Shown here: piece after piece, positions 3,845 to 32,165 of the stretch | How positions within the stretch are numbered: position 1 is the stretch's first letter | How the letters are laid out: the number at the start of each line of letters is the position of its first letter | Assembly: GCA_021513715.1 (NCBI GenBank) | Contig: CP084167.1 | Location: 608,001-672,000 of the forward strand | Reading direction: 5' to 3' | Source: Candidatus Heimdallarchaeum endolithica | Lineage (GTDB): Archaea; Asgardarchaeota; Heimdallarchaeia; Heimdallarchaeales; Heimdallarchaeaceae | Length of the DNA stretch: 64,000 nt | The notes under the pieces: model-generated | The model's database searches: none | What the model was told of the DNA's origin: nothing | The model's input: the letters and a program-made list of their open reading frames with translations, nothing else | Made by a program: the position numbers and the translations under genes

Positions 3845-6800
3845 ATGAGTAAATTGTCCAACAAAAAAATAGAGATTATAATCTTAATTTTTCTTCTTAT
3901 TACAATTAAAATCTACCAAGTAGAGCAAATAAAAATCAATAATCAATTTGATGAAGAAAAAAAAGATAATAATAGGAAACATTATACCACAATACATCAT
4001 TCTATTGAAATTACTTCAGATGACAATTTTTCTTCATTTCCTGGTTCTGGTACTAAAGATGACCCATATATTATAAAAGACTATATTATTTATTCATCTT
4101 CCAAATATGGGATATATATTTTTAATACCACAAAATATTTTATTGTACAAAATTGTAAAGTAAAATCTTCATATCTTAGTGGTCTTTATATATCTCATAT
4201 TAAAAATGGAACAGGAAAAATACTAGACAATGAATTCAACAGCGATAATTATGGAATATATGTTGACTCTTCAAATAATCTCTCAATTATTAATAACATC
4301 TATTTAGCTAAATATGGAATATATATGCATAGTTCAGCAAATAATTATATAGCCAAAAATGAATTTTACTCTTTATTTAAAGGAATCAACATTATATATT
4401 CCAATAACATAACAATAGAAAACAATACTTATTTTGAAAGCACACAAATTTCCATACGTCTACTTTATTCTAGTAATAATACAATAATAAATAACACTTT
4501 TACAAAAGTAAAAAAAGCTATTTATATTTATTATTCATTTAACAATTTTCTAACAGGTAATAATTTTACTAATAATGAAGTTGCAATTAATCTCATTTAT
4601 TCTGATAAGAATTTTATCTTTAATAATTCCTTTCAACTTAGTGAAATTAATTCAATAAATTTGGAATCTTCATTAAATAATTCAATAATAAACAATTCAT
4701 GTTTTTATTGTGATAACAATTCTATTTATCTAATTAACTCAGAATATAATTTAATATCAAACAATAGTTGTTACAATTGTAATAGCGCTATTTATCTTCA
4801 TAATTCTAGTTACAATCTACTAGAACACAATAGATTGATAAATAATTTGAAATATGGACTTCTTTTAATATCTTCAAATAACAATGATGTTAAAACTAAT
4901 ATTATAGTAAAAAATTCTTTTTATGGAATAAATCTATTATATTCAAAAAATAATACTATTTGGTTAAATTATATAGTATTTAACAATGTTGCAGTATCAA
5001 ATTCAGTTCAAGTTAACGATAATAATGGATTAAATTATTGGTATGAACCCATAATTAAAAAAGGGAACTATTGGAATGAATTCACTTATGGAAAAAATTA
5101 TTCAATCAACCCAGGACTTACGTCAGACTTATACCCACAAAATTCTACAGATACAGATGATGATGGCTTACAAGATGTAATTGAAATAAACTGTTTCTTT
5201 ACAAACATATTTAGCAATGATACAGACAGTGATGGAATAATAGATTATTGGGAAATTGATAATAATTTTAATCCATTAATTAATGATTCCTCACTTGACC
5301 TAGATAGAGATAATTTATCTAACTTGGCAGAGTATCAAAATAATACAGACCCTCATGATCCAGATACAGATGATGATGATTTAAGAGATGGAGACGAAGT
5401 TAACATTTATCTTACTGATCCTCTTGACTCTGATACTGACGATGATGGTATGCCTGATGGTTGGGAAGTAGAAAATTGTTTAAATCCTCTAGAAAATGAT
5501 AGTTACAATGATCCTGATGATGATAGTTTAGTAAATCTAGAAGAATATAACTATTCAACAAACCCAACTAATAATGACACTGATGGAGATGGTTTATCAG
5601 ACTATAACGAGATATATAGTTATAATAGTGACCCCACAGATATAGACACAGATAATGATGGTTTGTTTGATGGACAAGAAGTTAATTTGTTTTTAACTAA
5701 CCCTTTGGATTCTGACACTGATAATGACAAAATAGATGATTATTCTGAAGTATATTCGTTTTTTACTGACCCAAACTGTAATGACACTGATAATGATGGT
5801 TTGCTTGATGGTCAAGAAGCATATATCTTCTTTTCAGATCCAAATAGTAATGATACAGACCTTGATGGCTTATCAGATTATGAAGAAATAATTTATAATA
5901 CTAATCTAAAAAATAGCGATACAGACTTCGACGGACTTTCAGATTATGAAGAAATAAAAGTTTATTTTACTAATCCAAGAAGTAAAGACACTGATAGAGA
6001 TGGAAGGTCTGATGGTTGGGAAATAGAAAATGGATATAATCCGCTAATGAAAAATGTTTTCTTTGTAAAGAAGAGTATCTTGATGATTCTATTTTATATT
6101 AACATTTCTTATTCTATTCTAATCTTTCTACTCTTGCTATATATTCTCACAATAAAAAAAATTCTAATACAATTTTTTCAATGGCAAGAAGAACATTATT
6201 TAGAATTAAATAAATTATTAATTCAATATGAAAAAGCTACAAAAATTGTTTTTCTTTCTGATTTTATAAAGGATTTAACACCAGTGATTAACCAAACTAA
6301 AGAAGAAGTAAAAAGTTACCCTAAATTAAGTTTAATAAAAAAGATAAATAATACGAAGCAAGCCTATAAACTTTGGAAAAAGAAAATAGACATAAATAAA
6401 TATGAAAAAATGTACAATGATTTTTATTTTAGTGTTACACAATTAAATTTTTCTGAAATCAAGATAATCGATAATAATAATGATATAAGTGTTGAAAATG
6501 AGAAATTTGATACACTCTTAAAAGAAATAATAAATGAAAGAAGAATGTTAAAACAATATAAAAATCTAATAACTGACATGAAGTTTATTTTTTCATTTTT
6601 ACCTCGTTTTTTGGATGAGAACAAGAAGTTATTTTTTAAACAAATAAATGAAGAAATTGAAGAAAAGTTTGAAAATGCAAATTCTTTACTTATTAAAACT
6701 CTGAAATTATCAATAATTAAAGGAAATAAATTGTTAGAAAAAGAAGAACAATTGTCTAAACAAATAATTAAATCACTCTCAAAAGAAATTTTGCATCGTT

Positions 6801-7225
6801 TTGCTATTTATGAGAATGAATTGAAAGAATGGAAGAAAAGAAGTGAAAATGTCTTATCAGAATTATTGGAGGAAGATCTAAAAGAAGTGGAAGATTTGTT
6901 TCAAGAAGAGAAAAACATGCTCAAGGAGATAATAGTTCAGAATGAAATCAAATATAAAGAAGTGAAAAGAGTAAAAGTACTTATAGATGTATTATCAATT
7001 TATAGTGAAATCCCTTTAATTAAGCTACAACGGAAACTTGGTTTTTCAAAATTAGAAGATTTGGAGAAATGGTTAATAGAACTAAGTTCGTTTCTATCAA
7101 TAAAAATAGAAGGAGATAAACTAATTATCTCAGAGAAAGCTACAAAAGAATTAACACAATCAATAGATGAATTAATTAAGAGATTCACTGAATGGGAAAA
7201 AACAGGAGAAGGAAAAAAAACATAG
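3845..7225 (+). CDS. Receptor-like surface protein 1: beta-helix, TSP3-like DxDxDG repeats, TM, coiled coil, PCI-like winged helix (tail type A)
   Basis: FPGSGTKDDPYII motif, NosD-like parallel beta-helix repeats, GNYW, DTDxDG repeats, TM, C-terminus [23 protein letters not shown]. Confidence 0.85.
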   Translation: MSKLSNKKIEIIILIFLLITIKIYQVEQIKINNQFDEEKKDNNRKHYTTIHHSIEITSDDNFSSFPGSGTKDDPYIIKDYIIYSSSKYGIYIFNTTKYFIVQNCKVKSSYLSGLYISHIKNGTGKILDNEFNSDNYGIYVDSSNNLSIINNIYLAKYGIYMHSSANNYIAKNEFYSLFKGINIIYSNNITIENNTYFESTQISIRLLYSSNNTIINNTFTKVKKAIYIYYSFNNFLTGNNFTNNEVAINLIYSDKNFIFNNSFQLSEINSINLESSLNNSIINNSCFYCDNNSIYLINSEYNLISNNSCYNCNSAIYLHNSSYNLLEHNRLINNLKYGLLLISSNNNDVKTNIIVKNSFYGINLLYSKNNTIWLNYIVFNNVAVSNSVQVNDNNGLNYWYEPIIKKGNYWNEFTYGKNYSINPGLTSDLYPQNSTDTDDDGLQDVIEINCFFTNIFSNDTDSDGIIDYWEIDNNFNPLINDSSLDLDRDNLSNLAEYQNNTDPHDPDTDDDDLRDGDEVNIYLTDPLDSDTDDDGMPDGWEVENCLNPLENDSYNDPDDDSLVNLEEYNYSTNPTNNDTDGDGLSDYNEIYSYNSDPTDIDTDNDGLFDGQEVNLFLTNPLDSDTDNDKIDDYSEVYSFFTDPNCNDTDNDGLLDGQEAYIFFSDPNSNDTDLDGLSDYEEIIYNTNLKNSDTDFDGLSDYEEIKVYFTNPRSKDTDRDGRSDGWEIENGYNPLMKNVFFVKKSILMILFYINISYSILIFLLLLYILTIKKILIQFFQWQEEHYLELNKLLIQYEKATKIVFLSDFIKDLTPVINQTKEEVKSYPKLSLIKKINNTKQAYKLWKKKIDINKYEKMYNDFYFSVTQLNFSEIKIIDNNNDISVENEKFDTLLKEIINERRMLKQYKNLITDMKFIFSFLPRFLDENKKLFFKQINEEIEEKFENANSLLIKTLKLSIIKGNKLLEKEEQLSKQIIKSLSKEILHRFAIYENELKEWKKRSENVLSELLEEDLKEVEDLFQEEKNMLKEIIVQNEIKYKEVKRVKVLIDVLSIYSEIPLIKLQRKLGFSKLEDLEKWLIELSSFLSIKIEGDKLIISEKATKELTQSIDELIKRFTEWEKTGEGKKT

Positions 7226-31900: not shown

Positions 31901-32165
31901 CAGAACCTGGAAAAACAGTAAGATCTTCATCAGAGTCAATTATTATTGGTGAGTGAGAAATATAACTGTTCTTTATTATATTATTAAAATTAGAATTAGA
32001 ATTAATACTTAAAATTCTTGCTAAGGCTATTTTATTGAATTTAATATCTATATCTTTAGTTTTTTGTACATCATATGTTATTAAAACACTTGAAACTATT
32101 AGTAATACTAGTACTAAATTTGTTTTCAAATTAGTATTTTTCGAATTTTTGATCATTATAAACAC
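28968..32165 (-). CDS. Receptor-like surface protein 8 (tail type B)
   Basis: Same architecture, with internal 213-bp and 69-bp tandem repeats. Ends [25 protein letters not shown]. Confidence 0.85.
30043..30625. repeat. Near-exact coding tandem repeats (69-bp and 213-bp units)
   Basis: The ACTTCGTCAC anchor recurs at 30043, 30112, 30181, 30394 and 30607. Confidence 0.9.

Follow-up and report, generated by a model that had tools for sequence, protein, structure and literature searches.

A predicted PCI-type winged-helix tail shared by an array of beta-helix surface proteins in Candidatus Heimdallarchaeum endolithica, and its association with a UFM1-type operon

Subunits of the proteasome's lid, of the COP9 signalosome (CSN) and of eIF3 (Rpn12, CSN7, CSN8, CSN4, Rpn5, eIF3a/c/e; PF01399, PF10075) possess a non-catalytic module composed of a winged helix and a C-terminal helix, preceded by a solenoid resembling tetratricopeptide repeats (TPR). 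A PCI-like winged helix is also present in DDRGK1/UFBP1, together with a membrane anchor and a helical spacer, and UFL1 carries a helix N-terminal to a scaffold of seven winged helices. PCI complexes and UFMylation are both eukaryotic hallmarks of unclear origin. Here we analyse a window of 64,000 nucleotides, positions 608001-672000 of the 3,326,783-bp single contig of Candidatus Heimdallarchaeum endolithica PR6 (Asgard, Heimdallarchaeia). Eight large paralogous open reading frames (ORFs), located within window positions 3845-32165 (28.3 kb), encode predicted type I membrane proteins that end in a predicted PCI-type winged helix plus a terminal helix. Across Asgard genomes, this module is associated with an operon encoding a UFM1-type conjugation system.

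Several parts of this arrangement have described relatives. Prokaryotic surface proteins of the NosD/beta-helix and TSP3 type have the same signal peptide, beta-helix head, acidic Ca-binding-type stalk and transmembrane segment (TM) on the C-terminal side, but they end a few residues past the TM, whereas the array proteins run on for 296-469 residues. A small C-terminal PCI-like winged helix on membrane-associated proteins is known from the archaeal and Asgard PCI/HTH domains of ESCRT-associated proteins (Makarova et al. 2024, PMC10936438). In that study, SPFH and VAT_N genes are also present in the sorting loci, and kinases and Vps28-C fusions are covered; the passages searched make no mention of Ufm1, UFC1, the terminal helix or beta-helix arrays. 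PMC10183829 reports Asgard UFL1 and DDRGK1 and treats UFM1 and UFC1 as eukaryote-only; a later paper (PMC12962969) found an Asgard Ufm1, and UFC1 and PCI are unmentioned in the passages searched. No description of the module, of the surface arrays or of the operon link was found in the literature searched, a coverage that excludes subscription papers.

The array is composed as follows (window coordinates):

Gene 1: 3845-7225, plus strand; 1126 amino acids (aa); beta-helix, TSP3 stalk, TM at about residue 745-775, helical region, predicted PCI-type tail at about 6968-7222
Gene 2: 7262-9820, minus strand; 852 aa; architecture as gene 1; tail at about 7265-7534; cytoplasmic part of 298 aa
Gene 3: 10074-13259, minus strand; 1061 aa; tail at about 10077-10331
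Gene 4: 13489-16956, minus strand; 1155 aa; long TSP3 stalk; tail at about 13492-13746; mosaic with genes 5 and 1
IS481 copy 1: 17001-18010, minus strand; transposase frame open (17008-17946); between the head-to-head genes 4 and 5
Gene 5: 18054-20591, plus strand; 845 aa from the ATG common to gene 4; tail at about 20334-20588
Gene 6: 20766-25375, minus strand; body 20766-24257; signal-peptide codons at about 25273-25375; tail at about 20769-21038; split by IS481
IS481 copy 2: 24258-25272, minus strand; transposase frameshifted; 16-bp target-site duplication; inside the 5' end of gene 6
Gene 7: 25561-28752, minus strand; 1063 aa; tail at about 25564-25818; H. aukensis orthologue 84% identical
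Gene 8: 28968-32165, minus strand; 1065 aa; tail at about 28971-29240

For gene 5, the ORF list gives a TTG start at 18000; the ATG at 18054, as in gene 4, was used instead. Genes 3 and 7 are paralogues with a DNA identity of 85% over 3.5 kb. An earlier, sequence-only reading of this region had described eight consecutive genes sharing a signal peptide; the eight ORFs are indeed there, but they are not strictly consecutive, being interrupted by the two IS481 copies, nor are they co-oriented, and gene 6 has lost its own signal peptide to the second insertion, beyond which the corresponding codons lie.

The beta-helix, DxDxD stalk and single TM that this reading assigned to each gene are corroborated, since Pfam matches and TM calls agree. 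NosD/Beta_helix matches are found in all eight genes and TSP3_bac matches in seven, gene 6 having no such match but the same acidic DxDxD repeats. Pfam Binary_toxB matches cover the Ca-binding repeats only and do not designate a toxin. Each gene has one internal TM followed by 296-469 residues, the C-terminal module included. The 20 residues after the TM contain 5-11 Lys or Arg in seven genes and 2 in gene 1, and N-glycosylation sequons number 1.2-3.8 per 100 aa on the N-terminal side of the TM and 0-1.0 on its C-terminal side, a bias that is partly an effect of the Asn-rich beta-helix. On these two features, the C-terminal part is assigned to the cytoplasm. Together with hydropathy, they agree with the layout of a type I receptor (signal peptide, ectodomain, single TM, cytoplasmic domain), gene 6 lacking the signal peptide. 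The ectodomains, presented before as variable, are so in a restricted sense, all eight belonging to one beta-helix family with no domain at a ratio of nonsynonymous to synonymous substitution rates (dN/dS) above 1. Similarly, a charged coiled coil of about 300-470 aa had been proposed; the length holds but includes the tail, and the modelled part, that of gene 2, is a helix bundle. Indeed, the model of this 298-aa cytoplasmic part shows six long antiparallel helices, the winged helix and the terminal helix (pLDDT 83). These six helices do not form a coiled coil, nor do they correspond to the TPR-like half that a canonical PCI domain has: no TPR-like helical-repeat subdomain packs on the winged helix in the gene 2 model, which represents the only modelled subfamily, and whole-chain alignment with Rpn12 and eIF3a gives a root-mean-square deviation (rmsd) of 15-19 Å. 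Feature searches of the ESM Atlas returned no usable match for the cytoplasmic part.

The last ~85 residues align across all eight genes, and the common module ends in GxGKK as previously noticed, gene 7 having a variant of this motif. The AlphaFold2 model, built on an alignment of 148 sequences, shows a helix-strand-helix-helix-hairpin arrangement followed by the terminal helix, with a mean pLDDT of 78. Its top fold matches are Rpn12, the lid, CSN7 and CSN8, the aligned region being the winged helix: Rpn12 (4b0z) with Z 8.1 and 1.4 Å over 59 residues, CSN7 (3chm) with Z 9.2 and 1.3 Å over 63 residues. These Z values are middling, and sequence profiles agree with a PCI assignment. Among the 148 members, the three leading Pfam families are of PCI type, namely PCI in 65 (best 3.8e-7), CSN8/eIF3K in 19 and Paf67 in 17; the array genes themselves fall under the Pfam PCI cut-off (gene 1, E 0.0068 for the whole protein and 0.00066 for the tail alone). 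A subtype, type B, common in Lokiarchaeia and present in two copies in H. endolithica, aligns with the type of the window at 97.6% probability; in the PDB, its profile best matches a DDRGK1-UFL1 chimera (E 0.0002), then CSN4 and Rpn5 (E 0.003). By profile and model, the tail is accordingly predicted to be a PCI-type winged helix plus a terminal helix, as the sequence-only reading had supposed, and the model gives it a defined fold.

Comparison with the known proteins shows where the module departs from them. It resembles the PCI subunits in its winged helix and C-terminal helix, in the non-catalytic nature of the module and in the MPN protein, here encoded in the linked operon. On the other hand, it is not known to take part in a 6+2 PCI/MPN complex, the solenoid is replaced by surface, leucine-rich repeat (LRR), WD40 and other front ends, a membrane anchor occurs, and the module exists in dozens of exchangeable copies with a conserved terminal W-E...G-K. 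DDRGK1/UFBP1 is alike in its membrane anchor, helical spacer and winged helix (8ohd_C, Z 8.2, 1.8 Å, 62 residues), while the module proteins add large extracellular domains that neither it nor UFL1 has. In UFL1, the helix is N-terminal to the winged helices, whereas here it is C-terminal to a single one. Pfam DDRGK (PF09756) has nothing over its cut-off in the genome, the best match (E 0.14) not being on a module gene, and the tandem winged-helix scaffold of UFL1 (PF09743) is absent from the window genes, each with one winged helix, its sole match in the genome being at G000:2186264. The tail therefore resembles a winged-helix adaptor of the DDRGK1/UFL1 style but is classed neither with DDRGK1 or UFL1 nor as a full PCI domain.

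The module is maintained by selection. In pairwise Nei-Gojobori estimates, dN/dS runs from 0.06 to 0.31 in the tail, from 0.30 to 0.50 in the helical region and from 0.19 to 0.56 in the beta-helix, and the tail has the lowest value among the large regions in nearly all pairs. The tail is thus under purifying selection, and duplication without such selection does not explain its conservation. At the same pairwise level, the ectodomains gave no sign of positive selection acting domain-wide. For genes 1 and 4, the dS of the tail is 0.42 versus 1.0-1.5 elsewhere, indicating that part of the tail similarity comes from exchange. Further traces of exchange are seen in genes 4 and 5: their first ~200 bp beside IS481 match at 98-100%, and another stretch of ~300 bp, coding for part of the cytoplasmic region, is identical in the two. 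IS481 has ~25 related near-full-length copies across the genome. The same locus of H. aukensis contains three genes, one of them truncated, and a relic. Collectively, the duplications, conversion tracts, IS481 insertions and smaller H. aukensis set show that the array changes by duplication, conversion and insertion-sequence damage and is a fast-turnover family of surface proteins; gene 6, severed from its signal-peptide codons, is probably inactive.

The module is not restricted to receptor-like proteins. An iterated hidden Markov model search of the H. endolithica genome (G000) found it on 26 proteins, whose front ends are of at least six kinds. Of these carriers, 16 are type I membrane proteins, with beta-helix, FG-GAP/PQQ propeller or unassigned heads, and 10 are soluble (four LRR, one WD40, four helical, one tandem PCI). 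The receptor family proposed earlier is supported in its type I layout, but the module itself does not mark receptors, 10 of 26 carriers being soluble. Eight of the 26 genes sit in the 28.3 kb of the array versus 0.22 expected, and two relic module genes exist besides. On the other hand, 11 beta-helix/TSP3 paralogues devoid of the module end at most 20 residues past the TM. The window itself contains further genes of both sorts, outside the array:

Decayed soluble LRR gene: 45453-46400, minus strand; 5' end gone, one in-frame stop; ends in a PCI-type module
Three more beta-helix surface genes: 43709-45148, 46749-48182 and 48605-51700; two with TSP3 stalks; all end right after the TM

These three tail-less genes (43709-51700) are natural controls for the tail. 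A 1610-aa propeller/TSP3 surface protein (G000 450491-455323; L126:4492-9324) carries the terminal helix straight after the TM, without the winged helix; this helix scores 21, the 99th percentile being -0.5. The end of this gene was not found in five relatives, an empty answer that shows nothing. Conversely, the winged helix also travels without the end helix: in one group, ~39 genomes have single-copy WD40 proteins that possess it but no terminal helix (L035, L036; family f31), and proteins of another group combine HEAT, winged helix and Zn/RING parts (L027, L029, L032; family f7). Two tandem pairs of a helical+module and an LRR+module gene, at G000 481061-482635 and 789005-790789, have modules devoid of the final Gly-Lys; the same pair is found in G014 and apparently in H. 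aukensis. Beyond this genome, a profile search returned 539 cluster representatives at E up to 0.001; ten were sampled, of which three bear an organism name, all three Asgard. Across Asgard classes, proteins otherwise unrelated retain the module at 20-35% identity.

For the supposed shared intracellular partner, left unnamed by the sequence-only reading, gene neighbourhood and co-occurrence across Asgard genomes point to the following operon:

UFM1-type operon of H. endolithica: G000 531553-536286 (L065:7554-12287); UBA5-like E1, JAMM, Ufm1-like, UFC1-like, Vps22-like, SPFH; complete

The E1 best matches UBA5 (E 1e-52 versus 1e-24 for MoeB). The E2 is over the Pfam UFC1 cut-off, matches UFC1 exclusively in structure and keeps the catalytic Cys, and the ubiquitin-like protein (Ubl) ends in Val-Gly, features that identify the operon as UFM1-type. 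In the H. endolithica E2 frame, homology covers 83 codons ahead of the first ATG, hence a non-standard start is probably used. In two genomes (L045:8611-9198, L046:11124-11711), the UFC1-like E2 ends in its own acidic helix, which resembles the E1 tail and is possibly self-inhibitory. H. endolithica has two MPN genes; that of the operon bears a long C-terminal extension, and the second (G000 1516763-1517614; L043:1003-1854) is an Rpn11-like MPN/JAMM protein with a C-terminal transmembrane helix. In most loci, the operon has next to it the gene of an unannotated 363-aa protein with a C-terminal Zn ribbon (in H. endolithica, G000 527350-528441; L065:3351-4442). On visual inspection, the N-terminal part of this protein resembles Cdc48-N, a likeness that Pfam, NCBIfam, PDB and Atlas do not support. 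A beta-helix/TSP3/TM gene (G000 525354-527342; L065:1355-3343) located about 4 kb away from the operon, and duplicated in H. aukensis, has a 259-aa helical cytoplasmic part and no recognisable module. Far from the operon, a 252-aa tandem winged-helix protein (G000 2186042-2186800; L130:6043-6801; Pfam E3_UFM1_ligase, PF09743, E 1.7e-4) is a candidate UFL1-like gene. PADLOC gave generic E1 and JAB matches only and no match for the tails.

Module and operon tend to occur together. Of 400 Asgard genomes, 35 yielded the E2 and, among the matches listed, full-length modules are present in 25 of these 35 versus 11 of the 365 others; the profile was built from the H. endolithica genome alone and genomes were counted by hand. 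With many genomes incomplete and kin not independent, these counts of listed matches overstate significance and describe a strong trend without a p-value. The same holds, again among the matches listed, within one Lokiarchaeal family (12/20 genomes with E2 versus 6/115 without) and within the family of H. endolithica (6/6 versus 1/24). Physical linkage was observed as well. In a related genome, a beta-helix/TSP3/TM/module gene is located within an E1-MPN-Ubl-E2-Vps22-like-SPFH operon that three further module genes adjoin, and Lokiarchaeal loci fetched for module matches only also bordered the UFM1-type operon. Module genes are present in 13 of 36 E2 loci (stretches of ~10 kb either side of E2), a count that partly rests on the type-B profile, itself built from such loci, and they are interleaved between operon genes in G227, G241 and G030. 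Two module genes adjoining the E2 in G258 begin with Cdc48-N domains. In 11 genomes with genome-wide counts, five of which were picked after the link was seen, 11 module genes lie within 10 kb of the operon versus 0.42 expected.

The terminal helix, which is amphipathic, offers a possible basis for this link. Among the 148 sequences, its I, L and F/Y at positions i, i+3 and i+7 are conserved at 93, 93 and 96%, and its final Gly-Lys at 87 and 98%. Helices of human UBA5 (L394/L397/M401) and UFL1 (I8/L11/F15) bind the same surface of UFC1 (PMC8481289, PMC10438457); their spacing equals that of the terminal helix, a pattern common in amphipathic helices. Furthermore, a similar helix forms the C-terminus of most Asgard E1s encoded by the operon. 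The possibility of a COPI-type di-lysine signal was set aside: the conserved Lys is mostly at -2 or -3 without KKxx spacing and occurs on soluble proteins too.

We propose, with a probability of about 0.5, that the tail is a docking or tagging plug for the UFM1-type system and that the array proteins are perhaps interchangeable adaptors or targets. Such a portable plug would join diverse front ends (beta-helix, propeller, LRR, WD40, Cdc48-N) to the Asgard conjugation module. Its terminal helix would bind one of the module's components, for which the charged E2 is a plausible candidate, in the manner of the UBA5 and UFL1 helices. In a specific E2-recruiting form, which is less probable, the plug would take the charged E2 from the E1 and position it for transfer of the tag to the terminal Lys of the carrier itself or to a target that it holds. 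The Cdc48-N-like, Vps22-like and SPFH proteins of the operon might read or sort the tagged membrane proteins, the JAMM enzyme would both mature and remove the tag, and the tagged protein would then be sorted or removed. The beta-helix heads may serve in ligand sensing or in simple adhesion; patchy presence and fast turnover would suit the recognition of partners, food polymers or viruses, and the data favour none of these. More tentatively, each carrier could be a single-chain, exchangeable UFM1-type E3 adaptor or a self-tagging receptor, made of a variable head, a winged helix and an E2-binding helix. If so, a single conjugation machine in Asgard cells would serve a diversifying set of receptors, both at the surface and in the cytosol, and these receptors would come from the same winged-helix stock as eukaryotic UFL1-DDRGK1 and the PCI complexes. 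The small soluble parts (tail 85 aa, E2 190 aa, tag 88 aa) permit a direct test of whether modular adaptor-based tagging of membrane proteins predates eukaryotes.

Several observations weigh against a docking plug. The commonness of the i, i+3, i+7 pattern reduces the value of the shared spacing, and the E1 tails score at the 60-99th percentile of genome C-termini and are devoid of the W-E...G-K extension. Pfam DDRGK does not detect the module, and the Ubl is weakly Ufm1-like by sequence (Pfam E 0.059) with no PDB match. As for the genomic association, besides the overstated co-occurrence counts, no module gene is near the operon in H. endolithica, where the array is 76 kb away, or in its sister species H. 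aukensis; 23 of the 36 E2 loci, many on short contigs, are without a module gene; and at least 11 genomes carry the module with no E2 found by the query.

Alternatively, the module could be a PCI-style assembly unit, forming a winged-helix arc and a terminal-helix bundle, possibly with the MPN/JAMM protein of the operon, in a primitive lid- or CSN-like complex that clusters membrane and soluble carriers. The best structural matches of the winged helix, which are lid and CSN subunits, would fit such a role, as would the tandem pairing of soluble helical+module and LRR+module genes and the long extension of the operon's MPN protein. However, MPN C-termini are not conserved, no TPR-like solenoid precedes the winged helix in the gene 2 model, and the terminal helix occurs once without any winged helix. 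Conservation of a terminal W-E...G-K is not known from PCI domains, which also counts against this explanation, and we regard it as unlikely.

It is also doubtful that the association with the operon merely reflects shared residence in hypervariable or defence islands, the plug binding a different housekeeping protein, for instance one of a coat or of the cytoskeleton. Absence of linkage in the two Heimdallarchaeum genomes and in G137 agrees with this possibility, as do the patchiness of the operon (35/400), the insertion-sequence load of the array and the location of two G011 module genes in a region with HNH, GmrSD and AAA genes. Nevertheless, module genes with different front ends are inserted between the operon's own genes in several genera, presence co-varies even where module and operon are unlinked, and patchy presence is not expected of a housekeeping partner. 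Very improbable is the idea that the proteins are transcription factors tethered to the membrane, from which proteolysis would free a DNA-binding winged helix: the MarR, IscR and Sso10a winged helices among the fold matches (Z 6-7) stand lower in the list and have higher rmsd than the PCI matches, which rank first, and the core of the winged helix is acidic, its net charge having a median of -4 and being positive in 5% of the 148 sequences; in this set, neither the recognition helix nor the wing has a basic residue that is conserved. Just as hard to sustain is the view of ordinary adhesin- or S-layer-like paralogues sharing a tail merely by recent duplication: same-family ectodomains lacking the tail do occur in the genome, two of them in the window, and the gene-conversion tracts and low tail dS of genes 1 and 4 would suit it, but the tail dN/dS of 0.06-0.31 largely refutes a duplication-only origin, and the retention of the module on unrelated proteins in different Asgard classes also speaks against it.

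Elsewhere in the window, where Rfam has no match at all, two other loci were observed. The first, at 641-3644, encodes a 562-aa membrane protein whose C-terminus consists of a run of Gly and then six alternating Cys-Ala pairs; its gene overlaps a radical SAM/SPASM gene whose best NCBIfam match, below cut-off, is PqqE. The two genes, which H. aukensis also retains, have the look of a maturase and its substrate with a modified tail. Finally, a cluster of membrane-bound hydrogenase or complex I-like subunits (52521-54991) adjoins a small Cys-rich ferredoxin-like gene (52077-52478).

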